A stretch of 40,060 bases of DNA from an uncultured Pseudomonadales bacterium (GCA_964507605.1 CAZDQA010000001.1:1-40060); one strand, 5' to 3'. Numbered from the stretch's first letter, positions 9,640-40,025 are shown. Notes: generated by a model not told the origin, from the letters alone. Numbers and translations: made by a program.

Positions 9640-10602
9640 ATGGAACAAAAACTGCCTGTAGATTTACAGAAAAAAATTGAGGAAATGAAAGCCTATACCA
9701 AGCCTGAGCAAATGACTCAGTATCTTAATTTAATTAGCGCTTTGCCTTGGGACCAATTAAGCGATGATTGCCTGGACTTAAATAAAGCCAAGGAAATTAT
9801 GGATAAGCACCACTATGGCATGAAAGAAGTTAAAGATAAAATTTTAGAATATTTATCAGTCATGACCTTAACCCGCGGCAAAGAAGAAGCCACCAGAGCG
9901 CCCATGCTTTGTTTAGTCGGTTTAGTCGGCACCGGTAAAACTACTTTTGGCCAATCTTTGGCCGAAGCTTTGAACCGTCAATTTGTCCGGATTCCTTTCG
10001 GCGGTCTGGGCTCTGCTCTTGATCTACGCGGCCAGTCCCGGCTGCACCCCGACGCTGAGCCTGGGTTAATTATTAAAGCCCTGAGGCGGGCCAAAACAAG
10101 AAATCCGGTTTTACTGCTGGACGAGATCGACCGGGTCACCGACGCCTCCCGGGCAGATATTATGGGTGTTTTAGTCGAGCTGTTAGACCCGGAACAAAAT
10201 TCGCAGTTTACCGATCATTATCTTGACTACCCTTTTAACCTATCCGATGTTCTGTTTGTCGCCACCGCCAACAATACCCGGAATATTGCTACCGCGGTTT
10301 TAGACCGTTTGGAAGTGATTCAAATGCCCTCCTATACTGATGAAGAAAAAACCTCTATTGCCAAAGATTATATTTTGCCCCGGGTTTTAAACGAGTCCGG
10401 CTTATCCGCTGATAACTTAACCATTGACGATGATGTCTGGACTAATATCGTCCGGCCTTTAGGTTTTGATGCCGGTTTAAGAACCTTAGAAAGAACGATT
10501 GAAGGCATCTGTCATCAGCTGGCCCGCTCCATTGTTGAAGATAAAGCCAAACACTTTCACTTAACCAAAGCCAATATTAAAAATTATTTACCCAGTTATT
10601 AA
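9640..10602 (+). CDS. Stand-alone Lon-type AAA+ ATPase module (no N-domain, no protease domain)
   Basis: 320 aa. It is collinear with the Lon ATPase core: LPW..LDLNKAKEIMDKHHYGMKEVKDKILEYLSV, Walker A GLVGTGKTT, Walker B LLLDEIDR, LLDPEQNSQFTDHYLDYPFNLSDVLFVATAN, LDRLEVIQMPSYT and GLRTLERTIEGICHQLA. The ORF stops where the Lon S-K protease domain would begin. Confidence 0.8.
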   Translation: MEQKLPVDLQKKIEEMKAYTKPEQMTQYLNLISALPWDQLSDDCLDLNKAKEIMDKHHYGMKEVKDKILEYLSVMTLTRGKEEATRAPMLCLVGLVGTGKTTFGQSLAEALNRQFVRIPFGGLGSALDLRGQSRLHPDAEPGLIIKALRRAKTRNPVLLLDEIDRVTDASRADIMGVLVELLDPEQNSQFTDHYLDYPFNLSDVLFVATANNTRNIATAVLDRLEVIQMPSYTDEEKTSIAKDYILPRVLNESGLSADNLTIDDDVWTNIVRPLGFDAGLRTLERTIEGICHQLARSIVEDKAKHFHLTKANIKNYLPSY

Positions 10603-10604
10603 AA

Positions 10605-10617
10605 TATAACCGTTATA
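10605..10617. promoter_or_regulatory. Perfect 13-bp palindrome TATAAC-C-GTTATA upstream of rnj
   Basis: Read directly from the sequence. It sits in a 41-bp AT-rich intergenic region. TATAAA at 10632-10637 lies 6 nt before the ATG at 10644. Confidence 0.4.
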
Positions 10618-10643
10618 ACGATTATAAAAATTATAAACATTAT

Positions 10644-30334: not shown

Positions 30335-30367
30335 TATTGTGGCTTCTTTTATAGTGGTTATGATTTT

Positions 30368-30382
30368 TATAACAGTTATAAT
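30368..30382 (+). promoter_or_regulatory. Perfect 13-bp palindrome TATAAC-A-GTTATA overlapping a TATAAT -10 element, leaderless spacing
   Basis: Palindrome at 30368-30380, TATAAT at 30377-30382 and ATG at 30391, an 8-nt gap. Confidence 0.45.
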
Positions 30383-30390
30383 CGTTATTA

Positions 30391-30894
30391 ATGATTCTCC
30401 AATCCAAACCCTTTAAAATCTTCACCCTTGTTTTAGCCGTCACCTTTTACCTCTTGGCTTTTGTCGTTGCCTTTAAACCGGAGCCGTTTTTGCGCTTTGG
30501 CTACTGGGGGATTTTTGCTTTTAACTTAATTGGACCGGGCACTTTTTTAATTCCTGTTGCCAGCCGTCACTTTCTGGTGCTTGGCGTCGCTTTAGCCACC
30601 AGTCTGGGTATGGCTATTAATGACTCGGTGTCCTGGCTGGCCGGTAAAAACGGGGACATTGTTTTTCCTCGTGGCCGGCGGGTCGCCCGCATCGAAGCCG
30701 CGATTAAAAAATACGGCCCCTTTGCTCTGTTCTTTTGGGCGATTATCCCTTTTCCCTATGACTTTATTGCCGTTATTGCCGGCTATCTCAAACTTCCCTT
30801 TAAGCGCTTTTTAATCCCCACCTTTCTCGGCCGGCTAATAAGATTTCTCTTAATGGGCTTCGGCATCGTCGCCATCTGGGGCAAAGTTATCTGA
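30391..30894 (+). CDS. Small polytopic membrane protein, VTT/DedA (YqaA-like) family candidate
   Basis: 167 aa with ~5 TM segments. The pattern GPGTFLIP...NDSVSWLAGK...FALFFWAIIPFPYDFIAVIAGYL resembles the DedA/YqaA re-entrant motif region. The family call is tentative. Confidence 0.5.
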   Translation: MILQSKPFKIFTLVLAVTFYLLAFVVAFKPEPFLRFGYWGIFAFNLIGPGTFLIPVASRHFLVLGVALATSLGMAINDSVSWLAGKNGDIVFPRGRRVARIEAAIKKYGPFALFFWAIIPFPYDFIAVIAGYLKLPFKRFLIPTFLGRLIRFLLMGFGIVAIWGKVI

Positions 30895-30962
30895 TTTTTT
30901 CTTCTTTATAACGATTTATAACTTTTATGATTTTTATAATTTTTATGTTTTAAACTTTTTTG

Positions 30963-30971
30963 TGCTAAACT
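30963..30971 (+). promoter_or_regulatory. Extended -10 promoter (TGcTAAACT), leaderless spacing
   Basis: TAAACT at 30966-30971 and ATG at 30978, a 6-nt gap. Confidence 0.4.
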
Positions 30972-30977
30972 TAAATC

Positions 30978-31706
30978 ATGGAACCAATCCCGCCAACGGC
31001 GATTCCTCCCCAGCCTCCCATTCCTCCCGTCCCGCCCCCACCGTCGGTTCCGCCCGTTATGCCCCCACCCCCTCCCAAGAAAAAATCCTTTGCCTGGCTA
31101 ATTATCTTGATAATCTTTTTACTTCTTGCCTCCACCGGCGTTTTGGCCTATCAGTACTATCAGCTTAAAACTCAAATAGCCGCCCCTACCCCCAATCCGT
31201 CTCTCACTCCTTCTCCAACTTTAAACCAAGTTATCTCACCAGAACTAACAGCTGAACAAGATGCAACCCTTGACACAACTGCCAACTGGAAAACATATAA
31301 TAATACCTTTTATTCTTTTCGGATAGATTACCCGGTTAGGTTTGAGATTGTTGAAAAAACCAAACGCGAAGATTACTATGACACACTCGCCACATTAACA
31401 TCATCATTCAAAGAATCGATTACCCTCAAAGCAATACATGATATTGATATCTATGAAAAAAATGGGCCAGAAATGGTGGCAGAGCGGGAAGTAATGGACA
31501 GCGGGTTTATATATAATATTACTACCACTAAAATCGGTGATTATTTTGCGGCCATCACTACTTTTGACAACAACCCCGATAAAAAATCTCCTACCATCAC
31601 TATTGCCCACCCCAGTAAGAATCTTTTTATAGTTATTGACATTAACACCGACCTTTCTCGAGTCGAGTTTGACCAAATCCTCGCCACCTTTAAATTCACC
31701 AACTAA
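30978..31706 (+). CDS. Hypothetical surface protein with a Pro-rich cytoplasmic N-terminus, TM anchor and extracytoplasmic domain
   Basis: 242 aa. MEPIPPTAIPPQPPIPPVPPPP...KKKSFAWLIILIIFLLL, then a W-x-TY...YP domain ending FDQILATFKFTN. It is a paralog of the next gene. Confidence 0.7.
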   Translation: MEPIPPTAIPPQPPIPPVPPPPSVPPVMPPPPPKKKSFAWLIILIIFLLLASTGVLAYQYYQLKTQIAAPTPNPSLTPSPTLNQVISPELTAEQDATLDTTANWKTYNNTFYSFRIDYPVRFEIVEKTKREDYYDTLATLTSSFKESITLKAIHDIDIYEKNGPEMVAEREVMDSGFIYNITTTKIGDYFAAITTFDNNPDKKSPTITIAHPSKNLFIVIDINTDLSRVEFDQILATFKFTN

Positions 31707-31709
31707 TTT

Positions 31710-32840
31710 ATGGACAACCCACCTATTCAACCACCAATTCCTCCCACCCCCCTCGTCTCGCCGGAGCCCCCCCAGAAAAAATCCCTTGCCTGGCTGATTA
31801 TTCCTCTGCTGATCTTTCTTTTAGCCTTCGGCGGCTACTTTGTTATCCAAATTAATAAATTCAAACAACAACTTAACCAGCCGACGTCTACTGCTGCCCC
31901 CAGCCCGGTTGTTGTTTTACCCTCGCTTTCACCCGATCTCACTGCCGATTGGCAAACCTACACCAATCAAAAACAGAGCTACTCTCTTAAATATCCGACT
32001 TCCTGGCAGATTAACGAAACCGGCGCCACGGTCGACATTAACAATAAACTTACCCTTGCTAAAGATAACTACATTATTACCATTTATGCCAACATTCAGG
32101 GCATTGGGGGAACGGCCAAACAAGTTCCCTCCATCCCGATTACTGTCGCCGGTTTAAATTTATTCAAAAGAGACATCGGTGACAATCTTTATGAAAACAC
32201 CGGCTCTTTTGAAATCAGCGCCAGCGACTCCAGCCCGACCTTTAAGTATCAAGACAAAACTTACGAAATTTATCTCACTTACCCGTTAGCGGAAAAGGGG
32301 ACCCAAGCCTATTTAGCCAACCTGCAAACTTTCGACCTCATCCTCTCCACCTTTAAATTTGTCGATAGTATCGAGCCAGAATCATCTCCATCAACGCCAT
32401 TAGCAAAAATCCCGACGATATCCACCGACAACTGGAAGAGTGCCAGTAATAACGGAGTTCAATTTAAAATTCCCCCGGAAGCTACTTGCAATGATAATCA
32501 AGCTTGCACCTTAATATCTTGGACTTCTGAATATCAGGGAAATACGCTTTATCACAATATTCGCGTTGAGGTAAAAGATTATCTTGGAGGCTCAAGGAGA
32601 GAACAATTTTATCAAAACACTAAACCGGAATGTCATGATATTTATCAAGAAGCCAGTTTTGGCCCGGTTATAGCCCTGCAAATTGCCATTGACGGCGGTT
32701 GGTGCCAAGGTGGTGGTGGAGGCATTGTCACGGTTATTGGCAACAAATTAGTTATTGTCCACAATCTTTTTTATAACCTGGAAACAAAAGTTATCGATCG
32801 TTGGGACGTTCGGGATACGCTTGTATCAACTTTAAATTAA
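31710..32840 (+). CDS. Hypothetical surface protein, a paralog of 30978..31706 with an extra C-terminal Cys-containing domain
   Basis: 376 aa. MDNPPIQPPIPPTP...KKSLAWLIIPLLIFLL, DWQTYTNQKQSYSLKYP and FDLILSTFKFVD. Confidence 0.7.
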   Translation: MDNPPIQPPIPPTPLVSPEPPQKKSLAWLIIPLLIFLLAFGGYFVIQINKFKQQLNQPTSTAAPSPVVVLPSLSPDLTADWQTYTNQKQSYSLKYPTSWQINETGATVDINNKLTLAKDNYIITIYANIQGIGGTAKQVPSIPITVAGLNLFKRDIGDNLYENTGSFEISASDSSPTFKYQDKTYEIYLTYPLAEKGTQAYLANLQTFDLILSTFKFVDSIEPESSPSTPLAKIPTISTDNWKSASNNGVQFKIPPEATCNDNQACTLISWTSEYQGNTLYHNIRVEVKDYLGGSRREQFYQNTKPECHDIYQEASFGPVIALQIAIDGGWCQGGGGGIVTVIGNKLVIVHNLFYNLETKVIDRWDVRDTLVSTLN

Positions 32841-32842
32841 CC

Positions 32843-32989
32843 ATGGACCAACCAATCCCTTCCACCCCCTTTGTCTCGCCGAAGCCTACGGCGAAGGCGG
32901 AGCCGGTTTTTACCCAAACCCCGGTCGCGCCGGAACCGCCTAAAAAATCCTCCAAATGGTTGATTAACCTGCAGGGTCCGACCCTGTAG
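32843..32989 (+). pseudogene. 5' fragment of a third Pro-rich anchored paralog, cut off at hairpin H4
   Basis: MDQPIPSTPFVSPKP...PPKKSSKWLI matches the N-terminus of both neighbours up to the first residues of the TM helix. It then reads NLQGPTL* out of the hairpin repeat. Confidence 0.65.
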
Positions 32990-32992
32990 GCC
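32967..32992. repeat. REP-like hairpin copy H4
   Basis: a-CCTGCAGGG-tccga-CCCTGTAGG-cc followed by TTATTTTT. It abuts the stop codon of minus-strand gene 32993..33475. Confidence 0.75.
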
Positions 32993-33475
32993 TTATTTTT
33001 CCTGACACTCTATTCTTGCTTCAACAGTAAATTTACTATCCACCCTCAGGAATATATCTGCCGGCGTACCTAATTCTTCAAAGATGATTAACGCCTCTTT
33101 TTCAAATCCTAAACCCTCGTCTGGGATAACCATTACTCCCGGCGCTGCCTGTATTGGTGAACCACGTCGAATCAAACATATTTCATCTTCACCTTTTCTC
33201 ATAAAAACTTCTGCTCTGCCACAGCTGACAACTGCGACTGTGGGTTTTCCGCTTGCAATCTTTTTATATTTAGCAGGATTAGGGTAAATAAAAACGCCTT
33301 CGTCTTGTCTGTTTGGATCGCCGGGGGCGGTTAAAAATTCCCCTTCTTGTGTTGGTTTCCAAATTGGCTGCCTAAGTTTATCGGTGATTTCTATTGATTG
33401 CCAGGCTGGTCTTCGTTCTCCCTCAACCCCTCTTTGTCCTGCCGCTTCTCTTATTGAAACTTGAATAGATACCAT
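32993..33475 (-). CDS. Hypothetical protein (cassette gene 1)
   Basis: 160-aa ORF preceded by the shared promoter/stem-loop module. It shares short motifs (PIWKP; GRAEVF..KG) with the 142-aa cassette protein. I recognise no family. Confidence 0.6.
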   Translation of the reverse strand: MVSIQVSIREAAGQRGVEGERRPAWQSIEITDKLRQPIWKPTQEGEFLTAPGDPNRQDEGVFIYPNPAKYKKIASGKPTVAVVSCGRAEVFMRKGEDEICLIRRGSPIQAAPGVMVIPDEGLGFEKEALIIFEELGTPADIFLRVDSKFTVEARIECQEK

Positions 33476-33492
33476 AAATTTTTTACTAAAAA

Positions 33493-33528
33493 TCTCTGCT
33501 TCGGGCAGAGATAATTAAAATTATAACA
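33493..33528 (-). promoter_or_regulatory. Shared module copy a: extended -10 promoter plus 19-nt stem-loop
   Basis: On the coding strand: TGtTATAAT (complement of 33520-33528), 8 nt, then TCTCTGCCCGAAGCAGAGA (33511-33493), 17 A/T-rich nt and the ATG at 33475. Confidence 0.55.
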
Positions 33529-33546
33529 TTTCCCTGACAAAATACT

Positions 33547-33572
33547 ACCTACAAGGTCCAACCTTGCAGGCC
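33547..33572. repeat. REP-like hairpin copy H5
   Basis: a-CCTACAAGG-tccaa-CCTTGCAGG-cc followed by TTTTATTTTTT. It ends 2 nt before the stop of minus-strand gene 33575..33784. Confidence 0.75.
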
Positions 33573-33574
33573 TT

Positions 33575-33784
33575 TTATTTTTTCTTCTCCGGTTGGTGGA
33601 TAAAAAACATTCTTTCCGTGTCAATTTCCGGAATCACCACTGCCAAAGGGTTATTGTCTGCCCCCCCCACAACCTGAGCTTTTAACTCTTTAATTGCCAC
33701 ATAAGGTTCATCATCTTCATGATTGCTGTAATTAATCATTGTTCCCGGCTTAATCGTGATTGTTTTTATTTCTGGTTGGGTCAT
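33575..33784 (-). CDS. Hypothetical small protein
   Basis: 69-aa ORF. On the coding strand TAAAAT lies 5 nt before the ATG, which is leaderless-type spacing. No stem-loop module and no recognisable family. Confidence 0.4.
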   Translation of the reverse strand: MTQPEIKTITIKPGTMINYSNHEDDEPYVAIKELKAQVVGGADNNPLAVVIPEIDTERMFFIHQPEKKK

Positions 33785-33810
33785 AAGCTATTTTACTCTA
33801 TTTTTCCCGC

Positions 33811-33839
33811 TTGCTTTTCCCAAAGAGAGAGAGTAATAT
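33811..33839 (+). promoter_or_regulatory. Promoter of small ORF copy 1 (TTGCTT-N17-TAATAT) with (AG)5 in the spacer
   Basis: TTGCTT at 33811-33816, (AG)5 at 33824-33833, TAATAT at 33834-33839 and ATG at 33848, an 8-nt gap. Confidence 0.5.
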
Positions 33840-33847
33840 TCTGGTCA

Positions 33848-34072
33848 ATGGGATTAGAAATAGGAATACAACAAGCAAAGATGGGCGCCGTTGGTGATGA
33901 GTTTAAAACAGCCACTCCGCCCCCGCCATTAGCTCCAAGAGAGTTAACACCTGCGCAAATTGTTGCCGGTCCTGATATTGGTCAAATGCAAGATTTAGCC
34001 GGCCAAATCGGCCAGTTAGCTCAGGCCCCCCAAAAAGTTGAAGCCCCTGCAACCCCCACTCCAGCTCAATAA
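33848..34072 (+). CDS. Small Pro/Gln/Ala-rich protein, family copy 1
   Basis: 74 aa: MGLEIGIQQAKMGAVGDEFKTATPPPPLAPRELTPAQIVAGPDIGQMQDLAGQIGQLAQAPQKVEAPATPTPAQ. The same frame stays open in the diverged third copy. Confidence 0.5.
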   Translation: MGLEIGIQQAKMGAVGDEFKTATPPPPLAPRELTPAQIVAGPDIGQMQDLAGQIGQLAQAPQKVEAPATPTPAQ

Positions 34073-34108
34073 TTTCCTTAAACTTTTTCCTAGAGAGATT
34101 TATCATGA

Positions 34109-34134
34109 TCCTTCAAGGTCCGTCCCTGAAGGCC
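34109..34134. repeat. REP-like hairpin copy H6 (also a plausible intrinsic terminator for the + small ORF)
   Basis: t-CCTTCAAGG-tccgt-CCCTGAAGG-cc followed by TTATTTTATT. It lies between convergent genes. Confidence 0.75.
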
Positions 34135-34139
34135 TTATT

Positions 34140-34568
34140 TTATTCGCTGAAAGCGCCCACAATTTTGATTTCTTTTACCGGTTGGCCGTCAACTTTTATA
34201 GTTAATCCCATAGTGGCGCCGGAATGGAAAAATATTTCTGCTCTGCCTCCTTTAGCGCTGGCGCGGTCGTTCACGATGGTGACTGGGCCAATGGTTTCTG
34301 GTTCATCTATAGTAATTAATCCCTTTTCTCCCCAAAACACTTCAGCCCCCCCACTGCTGTTGATGCCAATGCCTCCGAATGGTTTAGTATTAAAATTAAA
34401 ATAAACCCCGTCATACTTATTGCCGTTTTCCGGCTTCCAAAGGGGAATGTCTGTATTATAAAATCCATGGGGGAATTTAGGATGTTCTGTCCAGCCTTCA
34501 TTTGGTCTTGGTTCACGCTCCTGGCTTGAAATGGGATCTCTGGTAAAAATCTGTAAATCCAAATTCAT
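34140..34568 (-). CDS. Hypothetical protein (cassette gene 2, copy 1)
   Basis: 142 aa from the ATG at 34568 (MNLDLQIF...). The TTG-extended 152-aa version in the ORF track would translate the stem-loop itself. It has an internal motif repeat GGAEVFWGEKG / GGRAEIFFHSG. No recognisable family. Confidence 0.6.
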   Translation of the reverse strand: MNLDLQIFTRDPISSQEREPRPNEGWTEHPKFPHGFYNTDIPLWKPENGNKYDGVYFNFNTKPFGGIGINSSGGAEVFWGEKGLITIDEPETIGPVTIVNDRASAKGGRAEIFFHSGATMGLTIKVDGQPVKEIKIVGAFSE

Positions 34569-34576
34569 ATAAAAAA

Positions 34577-34630
34577 TCTCTGCTTCGGGCAGAGACAAAT
34601 GTAATATACCTTAGTCTCGACAAATGTCAA
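34577..34630 (-). promoter_or_regulatory. Shared module copy b: TTGACA-N16-TATATT promoter plus 19-nt stem-loop
   Basis: On the coding strand: TTGACA (complement of 34625-34630), TATATT (34603-34608), 7 nt, then TCTCTGCCCGAAGCAGAGA (34595-34577), 8 nt and the ATG. Confidence 0.6.
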
Positions 34631-34640
34631 GGTTTTGTGA

Positions 34641-34666
34641 ACCTTCAGGGTTGATCCCTGTAGGCC
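34641..34666. repeat. REP-like hairpin copy H7
   Basis: a-CCTTCAGGG-ttgat-CCCTGTAGG-cc. It sits between the back-to-back minus and plus promoters. Confidence 0.75.
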
Positions 34667-34697
34667 TTGCTTTTCCCAGAGAGAGAGAGAGTAATAT
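34667..34697 (+). promoter_or_regulatory. Promoter of small ORF copy 2 (TTGCTT-N19-TAATAT) with (AG)7 in the spacer
   Basis: TTGCTT at 34667-34672, (AG)7 at 34678-34691, TAATAT at 34692-34697 and ATG at 34706. Confidence 0.45.
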
Positions 34698-34705
34698 TCT
34701 GGTCA

Positions 34706-34930
34706 ATGAGATTAGAAATCGGCATACAACAAGCAAAGCTGGGCGCCGTTGGTGATGAGTTTAAAACAGCCACTCCGCCCCCGCCGTTAGCTCCAAGAGA
34801 GTTAACACCTGCGCAAATTGTTGCCGGTCCTGATATTGGTCAAATGCAAGATTTAGCCGGCCAAATCGGCCAGTTAGCTCAGGCCCCCCAAAAAGTTGAA
34901 GCCCCTGCAACCCCCACTCCAGCTCAATAA
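34706..34930 (+). CDS. Small Pro/Gln/Ala-rich protein, family copy 2
   Basis: 74 aa. It differs from copy 1 only at residues 2 and 12 (MRLEIGIQQAKL...). Confidence 0.5.
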   Translation: MRLEIGIQQAKLGAVGDEFKTATPPPPLAPRELTPAQIVAGPDIGQMQDLAGQIGQLAQAPQKVEAPATPTPAQ

Positions 34931-34966
34931 TTTCCTTAAACTTTTTCCTAGAGAGATTTATCATGA

Positions 34967-34992
34967 TCCTTCAAGGTCCGTCCCTGAAGGCC
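34967..34992. repeat. REP-like hairpin copy H8 (identical to H6)
   Basis: Lies within the 858-bp duplicate. Confidence 0.75.
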
Positions 34993-34997
34993 TTATT

Positions 34998-35426
34998 TTA
35001 TTCGCTGAAAGCGCCCACAATTTTGATTTCTTTTACCGGTTGGCCGTCAACTTTTATAGTTAATCCCATAGTGGCGCCGGAATGGAAAAATATTTCTGCT
35101 CTGCCTCCTTTAGCGCTGGCGCGGTCGTTCACGATGGTGACTGGGCCAATGGTTTCTGGTTCATCTATAGTAATTAATCCCTTTTCTCCCCAAAACACTT
35201 CAGCCCCCCCACTGCTGTTGATGCCAATGCCTCCGAATGGTTTAGTATTAAAATTAAAATAAACCCCGTCATACTTATTGCCGTTTTCCGGCTTCCAAAG
35301 GGGAATGTCTGTATTATAAAATCCATGGGGGAATTTAGGATGTTCTGTCCAGCCTTCATTTGGTCTTGGTTCACGCTCCTGGCTTGAAATGGGATCTCTG
35401 GTAAAAATCTGTAAATCCAAATTCAT
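34998..35426 (-). CDS. Hypothetical protein (cassette gene 2, copy 2; identical to 34140..34568)
   Basis: Identical translation in the ORF track. Confidence 0.6.
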   Translation of the reverse strand: MNLDLQIFTRDPISSQEREPRPNEGWTEHPKFPHGFYNTDIPLWKPENGNKYDGVYFNFNTKPFGGIGINSSGGAEVFWGEKGLITIDEPETIGPVTIVNDRASAKGGRAEIFFHSGATMGLTIKVDGQPVKEIKIVGAFSE

Positions 35427-35434
35427 ATAAAAAA

Positions 35435-35488
35435 TCTCTGCTTCGGGCAGAGACAAATGTAATATACCTTAGTCTCGACAAATGTCAA
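35435..35488 (-). promoter_or_regulatory. Shared module copy c (identical to copy b)
   Basis: Lies within the 858-bp duplicate. Confidence 0.6.
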
Positions 35489-35498
35489 GGTTTTGTGA

Positions 35499-35524
35499 AC
35501 CTTCAGGGTTGATCCCTGTAGGCC
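35499..35524. repeat. REP-like hairpin copy H9 (identical to H7)
   Basis: Lies within the 858-bp duplicate. Confidence 0.75.
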
Positions 35525-35555
35525 TTGCTTTTCCCAGAGAGAGAGAGAGTAATAT
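35525..35555 (+). promoter_or_regulatory. Promoter of small ORF copy 3 (identical to copy 2)
   Basis: TTGCTT, (AG)7 and TAATAT, with the ATG at 35564. Confidence 0.45.
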
Positions 35556-35563
35556 TCTGGTCA

Positions 35564-35791
35564 ATGAGATTAGAAATCGGCATACAACAAGCAAAGCTGG
35601 GCGCCGTTGGTGATGAGTTCAAAACAGACACCCCGCCGCCGCCCTTACTTCCAAGAGAACCGTTAACCCCTGGGCAAATAGTTGCCGGCCCCGACATTAA
35701 CCAAATGCAAGAAGCGGTTGGTTATGCGGGGTGGTTACGTCAGACCCTTAAAAAAGTTAAAGCCGCTCTAACCCCTACTCCAACTCAATAA
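35564..35791 (+). CDS. Small Pro-rich protein, diverged family copy 3
   Basis: 75 aa: MRLEIGIQQAKLGAVGDEFKTDTPPPPLLPREPLTPGQIVAGPDINQMQEAVGYAGWLRQTLKKVKAALTPTPTQ. The N-terminal 21 aa, the IVAGPDI block and the TPTPxQ end are conserved while the middle is replaced. Confidence 0.5.
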   Translation: MRLEIGIQQAKLGAVGDEFKTDTPPPPLLPREPLTPGQIVAGPDINQMQEAVGYAGWLRQTLKKVKAALTPTPTQ

Positions 35792-35859
35792 TTTTCCTAA
35801 ACTTCCTAAGTTACCTAGTTTTCTTCTTTATAACCGTATCGCTATTTTTCTCCTTTTAA

Positions 35860-36438
35860 TTATACCTCGGGGTTTAAAAGATAAGGTCCATCAACAATTT
35901 CTATCATCATTTGATTTAAAGGGTACATTAGGTCTTCCCAAACCCGCATTCCTCGTAGCACTGGCATTCCTGTTTGTGGATTTGTTGGCGGATCCAAAAA
36001 CAGCACGATCTCTCCTTCTTCGGAAGGCGTGAGTCTTTCTGTCCGTGAAAATCTCCATTTACCATCTTCCAGGCAAGCTTCAACGAAAAAACCACCTGGG
36101 TCTGTGGACGCGCCAATCAGTCTCTGTGAATCTTTTGTTATCGTTACTAAAGGTTTGTCAGCTTCATTTTTTATGACGACTTCGAGATTGCCGTCTCTTT
36201 CCCTATACTGCAATCGATTAACGTTGGCCATTAAAGCGCTCTGATCATCGCTCTCCTGAACCAAGGCCATTATTGGTAACAAGCCGCCTTCTTGGGTACC
36301 AAAGGCTAATTGGATCAAGCGATCGGGGAACACCAACCCTTTATTAGAAAGTTCCTCAATTAGCATGGCTACTCCCGGCATTATCCGGTCCAGCTGCATC
36401 GGTCTCGGCTGTTTATCAATAGAGGATTCTGGTAGCAT
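35860..36438 (-). CDS. Hypothetical protein (cassette gene 3)
   Basis: 192-aa ORF preceded by the shared promoter/stem-loop module. No recognisable family. Confidence 0.6.
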   Translation of the reverse strand: MLPESSIDKQPRPMQLDRIMPGVAMLIEELSNKGLVFPDRLIQLAFGTQEGGLLPIMALVQESDDQSALMANVNRLQYRERDGNLEVVIKNEADKPLVTITKDSQRLIGASTDPGGFFVEACLEDGKWRFSRTERLTPSEEGEIVLFLDPPTNPQTGMPVLRGMRVWEDLMYPLNQMMIEIVDGPYLLNPEV

Positions 36439-36465
36439 AATCTCGTTTTATTTTTTTACTAAAAA

Positions 36466-36519
36466 TCTCTGCTTCGGGCAGAGACAATGTTAATATATCC
36501 TCTTCTCGACAAATGTCAA
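36466..36519 (-). promoter_or_regulatory. Shared module copy d: TTGACA-N16-TATATT promoter plus 19-nt stem-loop
   Basis: On the coding strand: TTGACA (complement of 36514-36519), TATATT (36492-36497), 7 nt, then TCTCTGCCCGAAGCAGAGA (36484-36466), 27 nt and the ATG at 36438. Confidence 0.6.
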
Positions 36520-36534
36520 GTTTTTGTATATAAT
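36506..36534 (+). promoter_or_regulatory. Candidate fusA-tuf promoter (TCGACA-N17-TATAAT), interdigitated with minus-strand module d
   Basis: TCGACA at 36506-36511 and TATAAT at 36529-36534. The -35 region overlaps the -35 of the opposing promoter. Confidence 0.45.
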
Positions 36535-36571
36535 CCGCTTACTATTAATTAACTCTATTTCTCTTAAAGCC

Positions 36572-36598
36572 ATCGCTTCCTCAAGAGAAGCGATTTTT
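36572..36598 (+). terminator. Terminator-like hairpin plus T-run 10 nt upstream of the fusA start
   Basis: ATCGCTTC-ctcaaga-GAAGCGAT followed by TTTTAT. Confidence 0.45.
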
Positions 36599-36608
36599 AT
36601 TGCCATCT

Positions 36609-38747
36609 ATGGCTGAACAATCCGCCACTGCCAAAAAGCGCCACGTGCCTCTGGATAAAATCCGGAATATCGGCATTATTGCCCATATTGATGCCGGCAA
36701 AACTACTACCACCGAGCGGATTCTTTTCTATACCGGAAAAACCTACAAACTTGGTGATATTGACGAAGGCACCACCCAGATGGACTGGATGGCCCAGGAG
36801 CGCGAGCGGGGCATTACCATTGTCTCTGCCGCCACCACTGCTTTCTGGACGCAAATTCTTCCCGGCGCCGTTCCCCATGAAGAATACCGCATTAACATTA
36901 TCGACACTCCCGGCCATGTGGACTTTACCGCCGAAGTCGAACGCTCCCTCCGCGTTTTAGACGGGGGGATTACTGTTTTAGATGCCGAAGAAGGCGTCCA
37001 GTCCCAATCAGAAACCGTCTGGCACCAGGCCGATAAATACAATGTTCCCCGTCTTTGTTTTGTTAATAAAATGGACAAGCTTGGGGCTGATTTTTTAGCC
37101 ACGGTTCAGGATATTAAAGACCGCCTCGGCGCCAATCCGGCCATTATGGCCCTGCCGATCGGGGTAGAGTCTTCGTTTAAGGGGATAGTTTTGCTCTTAG
37201 ATCAAAAAGCGATGATTTGGCATTCAGATGAAACCGGTGCTGAATATGACATTACCGATATTCCCCAAGACATGGCCGATCAGGTTAAAGAATACCGGGC
37301 CAAATTAATCGAACAAATTTCCGAGCATGACGACGCTTTGTTAAACAAATATTTAAACGGCGAAGAACCGACCGTGACGGAGCTAAAAACCGTTTTAAGA
37401 AAAGCCGTCATTGCCTACAAACTGGTGCCGATTTTTTGCGGTTCGTCTTTAAGAAACAAAGGCGTTCAGCCCTTGCTTGATGCCGTGGTTGAGTATCTGC
37501 CCAGCCCGGTCGATCTGAAAGAAGTCAAAGGCACCCACCCCAAAACTAATGCCGAAGAACTCCGCCTCTGCAACAATGAAGCCCCTTTCTGCGGTCTGGC
37601 TTTCAAAATTCAATCCGACCCGCACGTCGGCCGCTTAATCTATGTCCGCATTTACTCCGGCACCCTTAAATCCGGCAGCTATGTTTACAACTCTACCAAA
37701 GATAAAAAAGAACGTGTCGGCCGCCTGCTGTTAATGCATGCCAACGACCGCGAAGAAATTCCCGAAGCCTTTTCCGGGGAAATCGTCGCCCTGGTCGGTT
37801 TAAAAGACACCACCACCGGCAATACTTTAACTGATGATAGCCACCCGATTATTTTGGAAGGGATTACTTTTACCGAACCGGTCATCTCGTTGGCCATTGA
37901 GCCCAAAACCAAAGCCGACCAGGAAAAAATGGGTTTTGCCTTAAAGCGGCTTTCTGAAGAAGATCCTACTTTTACAATTAAATCCGATCCGGAAACCGGC
38001 CAAACCATTATTTCCGGCATGGGCGAACTGCACTTGGAAATTTTGGTCGACCGGATGAAGCGGGAATTTAAAGTCGAAGCCAACACCGGCCAACCCCAGG
38101 TTGCTTACAAAGAAACTATCAAAAAAATCGCCGAAGCCGAAGGTAAATACATTCGCCAATCCGGCGGCCGCGGCCAGTACGGCCACTGTTTCTTAAGGAT
38201 TGAGCCCAAAAGCCGCGGTGAGGGTTTTGAATTTGTTTCCGAAATCACCGGCGGCACCATTCCCCGGGAGTTTATTCCTCCGATCGGCAAGGGCGCCAAA
38301 GAAGCCGCGGAAAACGGCGTGATTGCCGGCTTTCCTTTAGTCGATGTCAAAGTGGCGGTTTACGACGGTTCTTTCCATGATGTTGACTCTTCGGAAATTG
38401 CCTTCAAAATTGCCGGTTCTATCGCTTTCCAGTCAGCGGTCAAACAGGCTGACCCGATTCTTTTGGAGCCGATCATGAAACTCGAAGTTTCTTCCCCCGA
38501 AGAATTTATGGGTGAGATTATCGGCGATCTGTCCAAAAAACGGGCCCGCATCTTAGGCACTAACAAGCGCGGCCGGATATTAATCATCAATGCCGAAGCC
38601 CCCTTGGCAGAAATGCCCCAATATGCTACTATTCTCCGTTCCATGACTCAAGGCCGGGCCAGCTTTTACATGGAGCCGTCCCACTACGAGGAAGTGCCCA
38701 ATAACATTGCCCAAAAAATTATTGCTAAATCTGCCAAAAACAGTTAA
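36609..38747 (+). CDS. fusA: Elongation factor G
   Basis: [51 protein letters not shown] and NKMD, plus the domain IV/V blocks. I prefer the ATG at 36609 over the TTG at 36600. Confidence 0.95.
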
Positions 38748-39985: not shown

Positions 39986-40025
39986 GTGTCACTGTGTCAC
40001 TGTGGCACTGTGTCACTGTGTCACT
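39986..40025. repeat. 8-bp tandem repeat (GTGTCACT)x5, with one T>G variant
   Basis: Units at 39986, 39994, 40002 (GTGGCACT), 40010 and 40018. The repeat ends 10 nt before the rpsJ ATG. Confidence 0.9.

Follow-up and report, generated by a model that had tools for sequence, protein, structure and literature searches.

What kind of element is a short open reading frame (ORF) that occurs three times inside one of the most conserved gene clusters of bacteria, each time behind a promoter whose spacer carries a dinucleotide repeat? This question is raised by a 40,060-nt stretch of DNA deposited as that of an uncultured Pseudomonadales bacterium (GCA_964507605.1 CAZDQA010000001.1:1-40060), which as a whole is referred to here as the window. 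Between positions 33,811 and 35,791 it holds three plus-strand ORFs of 74-75 aa, each preceded by an (AG)n tract and facing a gene on the minus strand. A preliminary description, made from the sequence alone, proposed that these ORFs are coding, that the tract may let individual copies differ or switch in expression, and that each ORF may be functionally linked to the gene it faces.

In our view, the element is rather probably a small-protein gene that is expressed as a leaderless mRNA from a promoter class common to the clade, in which the (AG)n spacer slips in length and probably tunes transcription. The evidence is presented in the following order: the coding nature of the ORF and its family; the divergence and number of the copies; the promoter and its tract; the genes and the genomic island around them; and the meaning of the whole for a little-known group of bacteria.

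The small ORF as a lineage-restricted gene

The three ORFs lie on the plus strand at 33848-34072 (copy 1, 74 aa), 34706-34930 (copy 2, 74 aa) and 35564-35791 (copy 3, 75 aa), and 858 nt separates neighbouring copies, as a direct repeat. Each begins 8 nt (tctggtca) 3' of a TAATAT hexamer, as had been described, although the start coordinates given at the time were 1 nt too low.

When eight distinct sequences were aligned by codon, the plus frame proved free of stops, against 1-7 stops per sequence in every other frame. The pooled ratio of non-synonymous to synonymous changes per site (pN/pS) is 0.46 in this frame and 0.89-1.56 in four of the five others; the antisense frame that shares third positions has a pN/pS of 0.55, yet it carries 2-5 stops per sequence. 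Because the homologues keep this frame alone open, and because substitutions among them are biased by codon in the manner of purifying selection, we regard the ORFs as coding, in agreement with the preliminary description. Its alternative, a transcript that works as RNA only, loses its footing here, as codon-level selection points to a protein product.

A profile built from the three copies recovered six more homologues of 68-76 aa from independent metagenome assemblies, and an exhaustive profile search of 1.84 billion representatives added four more distant members (58-77 aa) and nothing else credible; the related clusters among these representatives total only 5. About 70 residues of amino-acid sequence are conserved, with pN/pS of 0.2-0.5. 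No relative was found when the genomes of GTDB were scanned with the family profile, and a hidden Markov model search of six-frame ORFs around fusA in 80 GTDB genomes gave none, the family being absent from named representatives. A metagenome scan returned two contigs only, both already in the set. We take the three ORFs to be copies of a genuine, lineage-restricted small-protein gene of about 75 aa without a known domain, and the family is tiny and confined to a clade of the Patescibacteria, or Candidate Phyla Radiation (CPR).

The protein is predicted to have a helix at its N-terminus and an amphipathic one at its C-terminus, joined by a Pro-rich linker. The PPPP motif of the linker varies among homologues, reading PPAP or PPVP elsewhere, and a role as a sensor of elongation factor P or polyproline is ruled out because PPPP is not conserved. 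A double-glycine leader, or the precursor of a ribosomally synthesized and post-translationally modified peptide, was also considered for the conserved head and rejected; judged by eye, its hydrophobic positions misfit, and no peptidase or exporter lies nearby.

Divergence and number of the copies

All orthologues resemble copy 3, and the copy-3-like sequence EAVGYAGWLRQALKKVKAA is typical of them all; copy 3 is therefore the ancestral type and copies 1 and 2 are derived, which reverses the polarity first assumed. The difference had also been taken for a swapped middle, with about 35 aa of the centre and C-terminus replaced in copy 3. The copies in fact align base for base without an indel, and their divergence is limited to residues 49-69, about 21 aa, where a homologous stretch has undergone accelerated non-synonymous change. 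Between copies 1 and 3, pN/pS is 1.07 over these residues (19 non-synonymous and 6 synonymous changes) and 0.19 in the head, while orthologues have 0.3-0.4 over residues 49-69. The C-terminal helix of copies 1 and 2 has lost W, R and K and gained P, and the net charge of copy 1 is about -3, versus +1 in copy 3. The pattern is one of relaxed or diversifying evolution, which affects the C-terminal amphipathic helix of a paralogue; it is no module swap.

Copy 2 is a mosaic, with the promoter and head of copy 3 and the body of copy 1. Over 34572-34761 it matches copy 3 exactly, and over 34740-35539 it differs from copy 1 by a single base, at 34786, which places the junction within 34740-34761. Such an exact mosaic could mean that copy 2 and the second partner gene are an assembly artefact, produced by a loop through the 190-nt identical promoter and head in a mixture of strains, and that only two ORFs are real. 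The public runs that hold the strain (X1-X6, from aquatic or groundwater metagenomes) lend weight to this. The depth of the unit matches that of its flanks (16 versus 14-15 in X3, and 45.6 versus 49.3 in X1), and the A (33928) and G (34786) variants occur together in no public run holding the strain. Furthermore, the head that follows promoter 1 is polymorphic from run to run, of the copy-2/3 type only in X3 and of both types in X1, X5 and X6, and this polymorphism creates the graph path that an artefact needs. Against it, unequal crossover between the heads yields an identical product, and short-read assemblers usually collapse tandem repeats instead of expanding them. We consider the artefact to have close to an even chance.

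Since the unit is as deep as its flanks and no run holds both variants, two copies are counted as secure; the third is unconfirmed outside the window, and the public runs support one 858-nt unit. Copy 2 comes either from unequal crossover between the conserved heads or from mis-assembly, and the question bears on copy number alone, not on the nature of the gene or its tract. The polymorphic head after promoter 1 indicates gene conversion between the copies.

In run X1, the segment 33509-33903, which spans the 69-aa gene and the promoter-1 segment, has a depth of 30.7, below its flanks at 49.3 and 45.6. This suggests that structural variants of the region co-exist in one sample, possibly by deletions between the repeated 5' hairpin modules that are described below.

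The (AG)n spacer and its promoter class

The same order of elements is found 5' of each ORF, namely CTTGCTTTTCCC, the (AG)n tract, TAATAT and tctggtca. The candidate promoter of copy 1 (33811-33839, plus strand) has TTGCTT at 33811-33816 and TAATAT at 33834-33839, with a 17-nt spacer that ends in AA(AG)5, the tract occupying 33824-33833. In copy 2 (34667-34697, plus strand) and copy 3 (35525-35555, plus strand), the spacer from TTGCTT (34667-34672 and 35525-35530) to TAATAT (34692-34697 and 35550-35555) is 19 nt long and contains (AG)7 at 34678-34691 and 35536-35549, respectively. These lengths are as first described, and a simple repeat is present between -35-like and -10 elements in all three copies and in the orthologues with a tract. 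The sequence AGAGAGAG occurs 10 times in the window, all in the three promoter tracts, where 0.38 occurrences are expected.

The tract varies in length between nearly identical genomes. In the promoter of copy 3 it is (AG)8 in X1 and X3 and (AG)7 in the window, X2, X4 and X5. Over about 8.6 kb of alignment with the window (tract contig excluded), X1 shows a single indel, namely the AG gain at 35535, besides 2-3 substitutions. Over about 19.5 kb, X3 shares this gain and has 6 substitutions, and it lacks one unit of the 8-nt repeat at 40006. Two of the related loci (which carry L numbers here), L015 and L019, are one AG unit and one substitution apart in a 1281-nt block, and tracts among the relatives have 4-8 units. 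Contigs also break at the tract edge (35540) in X3, X5 and X6, which is suggestive, though ambiguous in meaning. Judged from these contigs, the tract is hypermutable, its length changing faster than the flanking sequence mutates.

As a hypermutable site, the spacer microsatellite of the preliminary description finds support, but the tract is not specific to the small ORFs. We surveyed tracts of at least four AG units in 162 kb, comprising the window and related loci. All 19 distinct tracts lie directly 5' of a TAnnnT-type hexamer in the same orientation (TAnnAT in 17 of them), and an ATG follows 7-11 nt 3' of the hexamer in every case save L003, where the distance is about 29 nt. The layout of the class is TTGnTT, 5-7 T/C-rich bases, (AG)n, the TAnnnT-type hexamer and ATG. 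The genes behind these tracts encode a response regulator, a STAS protein and a 308-aa protein, or are small ORFs, among them the one considered here; since the genes are several and unrelated, the tract is no device special to the small ORFs.

Spacer lengths in the class are 13 nt (twice), 15 nt (three times), 17 nt (11 times) and 19 nt (five times, with two window copies), and 21 nt is found in X1 and X3. The length of 17 nt is reached by varied mixes, such as 'ttccc'+AA+(AG)5, 'tttcccc'+(AG)5 and 'ttttaac'+(AG)5. As repeat and non-repeat parts of different make-up sum to 17, the spacing appears to be selected and off-17 alleles should be weaker, and the pattern argues that TTGnTT is a real -35 element. 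A 17-bp spacer is the general optimum of sigma-70-type promoters (PMC12641261). In the window, the spacer of copy 1 measures 17 nt and that of the ancestral-type copy 19 nt; in X1 and X3 the latter has 21 nt. The more distant L022 has interrupted GA-rich spacers of the same length, CAGAGAAAGAG and AAAGAGAGGAG. Because distant relatives keep such interrupted spacers, the pure repeat would be a lineage-specific refinement of a GA-rich spacer.

The loci L015 (1362-1745) and L019 (1280-1662) have flanks that are >99.6% identical, with different genes (a 123-aa STAS protein versus one of 119 aa) behind the same (AG)n promoter. With its breakpoint at the promoter, this pair makes the promoter module appear to be a recombination boundary as well.

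Does the length of the tract matter to the cell? It may be that a GA-rich spacer is merely the preferred -10-proximal sequence of a housekeeping promoter, and that its changes in length are near-neutral slippage noise. The tract does stand before many unrelated genes, some of them housekeeping-like, and L022 maintains the spacing with spacers that are not slippery; the -35 element (TTGCTT) is weak, and genes with 13-15-nt spacers are intact. What speaks against noise is the strong 17-nt mode, reached through varied combinations, which implies that spacing is selected and that off-17 alleles should have a phenotype. In addition, the tract is the only indel of X1 and one of two in X3 over the distances given above, that is, variation is made and tolerated at a high rate. 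We hold near-neutral slippage to be rather unlikely, and we infer an effect of tract length on expression from the spacing.

Several observations weigh against a slipping, tuning promoter in front of a small-protein gene. The small-ORF promoters match the sigma-70 consensus at 3/6 positions in TTGCTT and 4/6 in TAATAT, 7/12 in total, and a consensus promoter scan did not call them; their support lies in conservation, and for the -35 element also in the 17-nt mode, not in consensus. For a contingency locus that switches at a high rate, 4-8 units would make a short tract, and these counts are at or just above the threshold of the slippage survey (at least 5 dinucleotide units), below the (TA)9-11 of hif; proven cases have at least 9 (PMC2651432). 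Intact and selected orthologues with 13- and 15-nt spacers exist in L001 and L012, and these are either low-expression states, or TTGCTT is no functional -35 element and spacing is less important. The runs X1-X6 were compared as assembled contigs, and none of the public RNA runs searched for the locus holds it. As for the product, the small protein has no match in Pfam, NCBIfam, PADLOC or PHROG, the family profile has none in the PDB, and the AlphaFold2 (AF2) model, with helices at 3-17 and 45-69 and a Pro-rich linker between them, has a mean confidence (pLDDT) of 62.

Probable leaderless starts

The arrangement of TAnTAT, 7-9 nt and ATG is kept in all orthologues (nine sequences) and in the distant homologues. 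In L021 the promoter is TATAAT without an AG tract, and the geometry before the ATG is still kept. The small-ORF promoters are without a Shine-Dalgarno core, and transcription probably starts at the ATG itself. In the window as a whole, 13 of 34 genes have TAnnnT 5-9 nt 5' of the ATG (background 8.6%), and a Shine-Dalgarno core is present in only 2 of the 34. Leaderless geometry is thus plausibly the norm in this genome and not peculiar to the small ORFs.

A 9-nt periodic TTATAA/TTATGA-like repeat runs 5' of the leaderless genes at 30391, 30978 and 10644, where it occupies 30348-30388, 30915-30946 and about 10600-10643, respectively. It is possibly an UP-like or regulator-binding array.

The convergent genes

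Each small ORF converges on a minus-strand gene, as first described for all three copies. The partner of copy 1 (34140-34568, ATG at 34566-34568) is an orphan of 142 aa that is predicted to be all-beta, and an identical second partner of 142 aa lies at 34998-35426. The partner of copy 3 (35860-36438) is an orphan whose product has 192 aa, or 168 aa if a later start is used, with the same promoter and 5' hairpin module at 36465-36519. A hairpin abutting the 3' end of the partner was likewise part of the original picture. It is found at copy 1, where CCTTCAAGG-N5-CCCTGAAGG (34110-34132, plus strand), with a U-rich run after it, separates the ORF from the partner's 3' end, and 3' of copy 2 (34968-34990, plus strand), but copy 3 has no stable structure downstream.

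The AF2 model of the 142-aa partner is all-beta with a pLDDT of 76.5, and a Foldseek comparison with the PDB gave no match at E<=0.001; as no PDB fold matches, this protein gives no functional lead. Pfam, NCBIfam, PADLOC and PHROG scans of all four minus-strand genes gave nothing usable. Homologues form 3 clusters for the 142-aa type and 1 for the 192-aa type, the latter being a single homologue on a 757-nt contig without context.

Are the small ORF and its partner a functional pair? In one lineage (L022-25) the small ORF again faces homologues of the partner, here of 141 aa and 142 aa. Elsewhere the gene opposite it is homologous to the 160-aa gene of the window (L008, L011) or is an 82-aa homologue of the window's 69-aa gene (L013), and in L002, L003 and L021 it has no partner and lies directly before fusA. 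With one recurrence against several exceptions, the functional linkage proposed earlier is weakly supported.

The same evidence bears on the proposal that the plus-strand transcript is mainly an RNA, antisense or interfering, acting on the convergent gene, or that the small protein is a modulator dedicated to its partner. The convergent geometry at all three copies, the pairing in L022-25, and an upstream read-through of P0017, which places a small-ORF head beside a partner-type gene on another contig, are what this proposal can claim. Codon-level selection indicates that the product is a protein, however, and the two transcripts do not overlap, with a hairpin between them at copies 1 and 2. 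Moreover, the partner varies, being of 160 aa in L008 and L011, 82 aa in L013 and 192 aa at copy 3, with none in L002, L003 and L021, and partners are rare orphans where the small ORF is constant. We judge either form of this proposal to be very improbable.

The island in the str cluster and its host

The order of genes in the window is rpoB, rpoC, rpsL, rpsG, an insert of about 6 kb (30391-36540), fusA and tuf, and Pfam matches identify the products in and around the insert as S12, S7, VTT, EF-G and EF-Tu. The rpsG-fusA junction is usually contiguous in bacteria. Here the insert comprises a VTT/DedA-like gene and, of the Pro-rich PsbP-like kind, two membrane-anchored genes and a third that is truncated. 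It also carries four minus-strand orphans besides the small ORFs. The full PsbP-like copies lie at 30978-31706 and 31710-32840; the truncated one (32801-32989) retains about 50 N-terminal residues (..PPKKSSKWLI), after which a palindrome and a stop follow, and it marks the insertion point of the minus-strand cassettes.

In the relatives, the small ORF stays near fusA. In L002, L003 and the distant L021 it precedes fusA by about 113 nt, in the same orientation, and it is also near fusA in L001 (with three genes between), in L022-25 and in the window. In L022-25 the order is rpoC-rpsL-rpsG-VTT-...-MazE/PIN, then the small-ORF homologue facing the partner homologues, a 208-aa gene, fusA and tuf, and a second, internally deleted copy of the small ORF is present. 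From these arrangements, the small ORF is the constant landmark of a variable island, its usual place being that of the last gene before fusA, at the island's edge. As a separate observation, the rpsG-fusA junction (30391-36540 in the window, 3846-8348 in L022) is a hotspot of accessory genes, and relatives carry MazE/PIN, HicAB and Phd/YefM toxin-antitoxin genes there.

Least probable of all is a translated leader that would control fusA-tuf through a hairpin at its stop codon, for although the ORF lies immediately 5' of fusA in L002, L003 and L021, its stop falls within or at a hairpin in five orthologues (..LQGPTL*) and its Pro-rich stretch could slow ribosomes, a strong promoter-like site (TCGACA/TAGACA-17-TATAAT, 11/12 match) stands between ORF and fusA in every case, the hairpins of L002 and L001 are without a U-run, the conservation of about 70 residues reflects protein-level selection, opposite-strand genes part all window copies from fusA, and PPPP is not conserved.

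The 5' region of fusA in the window (36506-36608, plus strand) includes the promoter-like TCGACA-17-TATAAT and a leader hairpin at 36572-36594, with the fusA start at 36609. EF-G is at most 69% identical to GTDB species representatives, the best named being a Candidatus Daviesbacteria metagenome-assembled genome, followed by other Patescibacteria. Since no representative comes closer than this, the host belongs to an unrepresented CPR lineage.

Hairpins, palindromes and other repeats

The convergent hairpins belong to a family that recurs through the window. A palindrome resembling repetitive extragenic palindromic (REP) elements, CCTNCARGG-N5-CCYTGNAGG, occupies nine gene-boundary sites in 40 kb (3672, 4207, 5103, 32968, 33548, 34110, 34642, 34968 and 35500). 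Read in frame it gives ..LQGPTL*, and small-ORF orthologues, like the truncated ORF at 32801-32989, take their C-terminus and stop from it. The tail on its 3' side, CCTTGCTTTTCC, also serves as the -35 region of the promoter that follows: the family member at 34642-34664 (plus strand) lies directly 5' of the copy-2 promoter, and its tail supplies TTGCTT. Rfam 15 gave 0 matches at the gathering score over the whole window.

The minus-strand genes have an expression module of their own. At 34576-34630 (minus strand) it consists of TTGACA-16-TATATT and a 5' hairpin, GTCTCTGCCCGAAGCAGAGAT, with a U-run directly before the ATG, and its fold has a z-score of -3.2. Four unrelated minus-strand orphans carry this module, at 33492-33540, 34576-34630, 35434-35488 and 36465-36519, and it also stands before other genes in L011 (1116-1134), L021 (332-350) and L022 (4529-4547). 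The module resembles a 5'-leader terminator and may act as a 5' stabiliser or as a regulatory RNA element common to these genes. A search for it in viral contigs (IMG/VR) gave 0 matches, with no sign of a phage origin. The fusA leader hairpin, ATCGCTTC..GAAGCGAT at 36572-36594, likewise has a U-run right before the start; it is kept in L001 and L002, and L021 and L022 have a different hairpin. Genes here seem to use a 5' hairpin and an AU-rich stretch in place of a Shine-Dalgarno sequence.

Two further repeats were observed. An imperfect palindrome, CTCGACAAATGTCAAG, lies at 36500-36520, 34612-34633 and 35470-35491 and has been duplicated with each cassette. Within it overlap the -35 boxes of two divergent promoters, that of fusA (TCGACA) and that of the minus strand (TTGACA), and it could be an operator too. 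In addition, a tandem octamer, (GTGTCACT)5, is found at 39986-40025, 3' of tuf, and the X3 contig is one unit shorter. This octamer is the second length-variable repeat of the region, and its change is the only other indel across the aligned contigs.

Proposed mechanism

To return to the small-protein gene with a slipping promoter, the mechanism could work as follows. The clade promoter, made up of TTGnTT, a T/C-rich stretch, (AG)n, TAnTAT, 7-9 nt and ATG, would give a leaderless mRNA. The (AG)n run would form the -10-proximal part of the spacer and slip in steps of 2 nt, faster than the surrounding DNA mutates. Because the clade holds its spacing near 17 nt, spacers of 13, 15, 19 and 21 nt would most likely lower transcription. 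The result would be a tunable or switchable promoter, as a trait of the whole promoter class and not of the small ORF alone.

Extra copies of the gene would arise by duplication at the island, with copy 1 as an older paralogue that is evolving fast in its C-terminal helix, and the recent 858-nt unit with copy 2 would have formed either when the conserved heads recombined or when an assembler took the same path. Three conserved modules may serve as homology anchors for recombination in the island, namely the head of the small ORF, the family of hairpins, and the promoter with 5' hairpin of the minus-strand genes. A bolder form of this idea is that the (AG)n leaderless promoters are a genome-wide stochastic expression dial throughout the clade, and that the small-ORF promoter and head are a homology anchor for cassette exchange; this extension we regard as rather unlikely.

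Relation to known systems

Leaderless mRNAs are common in Actinobacteria and Deinococcus, and lambda cI is a further case. The genes considered here resemble them in having a -10 hexamer 6-9 nt 5' of the ATG without a Shine-Dalgarno sequence, an arrangement found in about 40% of window genes; they differ in that this class has a microsatellite spacer and its start is deduced from sequence. Variable lipoprotein families of Mycoplasma have a homopolymer or trinucleotide tract in a promoter common to all paralogues. The reuse of a promoter module that bears a repeat, and paralogues in a recombining cluster, are points in common; however, the products here are without a signal peptide or lipobox, and the genes that share the promoter are unrelated to one another.

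The closest mechanistic likeness is with Haemophilus influenzae hifA/hifB, divergent fimbrial genes with (TA)9-11 between -35 and -10 (van Ham 1993, as summarised in PMC2651432). Both systems, going by that summary, have a dinucleotide repeat between -35-like and -10 hexamers, where slippage shifts the spacing by 2 nt at a time about an optimum of 17 nt, and a length that varies between near-identical genomes. Measured against the same summary, the tract here is shorter (4-8 units) and serves one direction, and any switching, with its effect on expression, is a prediction from sequence. It also stands before many unrelated, partly housekeeping-like genes across a clade, instead of a few surface-structure genes, and its host is an uncultivated CPR bacterium.

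Two other comparisons are instructive. Like REP elements and intrinsic terminators, the hairpin recurs nine times between genes, often with a T-run after it, and flanks the small ORFs; unlike them, it provides the last codons and stop of several genes, its tail is the next TTGCTT, and no transposase was seen. Like a leader-peptide attenuator, the small ORF lies just 5' of an essential operon and has its stop in a hairpin in some relatives; it differs in having about 75 aa under protein-level selection and an independent fusA promoter downstream, and the arrangement is broken in the window.

Significance for the biology of the CPR

Promoter microsatellites that switch genes are textbook material for a few host-adapted pathogens, and almost nothing is known of CPR transcription signals. 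We know of no description of promoter microsatellites as a general architecture in CPR. The repeat-in-spacer type of mechanism is known; what is new is the (AG)n spacer as a general architecture of leaderless promoters in a CPR clade, together with a selected, undescribed small-protein family that marks an island inside the str cluster.

The findings provide a checkable promoter model for a bacterium of the CPR, consisting of TTGnTT, a T/C stretch, (AG)n, TAnTAT, about 8 nt and ATG, whose repeat changes faster than any other site over tens of kilobases. To this is added a small family as the marker of a recombination-prone island that splits one of bacteria's most conserved gene clusters. For the role of the small protein there are two leads, namely its place next to fusA and its place 3' of the PsbP-like membrane proteins. 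If tract length does set expression, metagenomic reads alone could give the expression states of uncultivated cells; and if the promoters act as a dial across the clade, stochastic tuning would be at work in a reduced-genome episymbiont, beyond the pathogens that are known for contingency loci.

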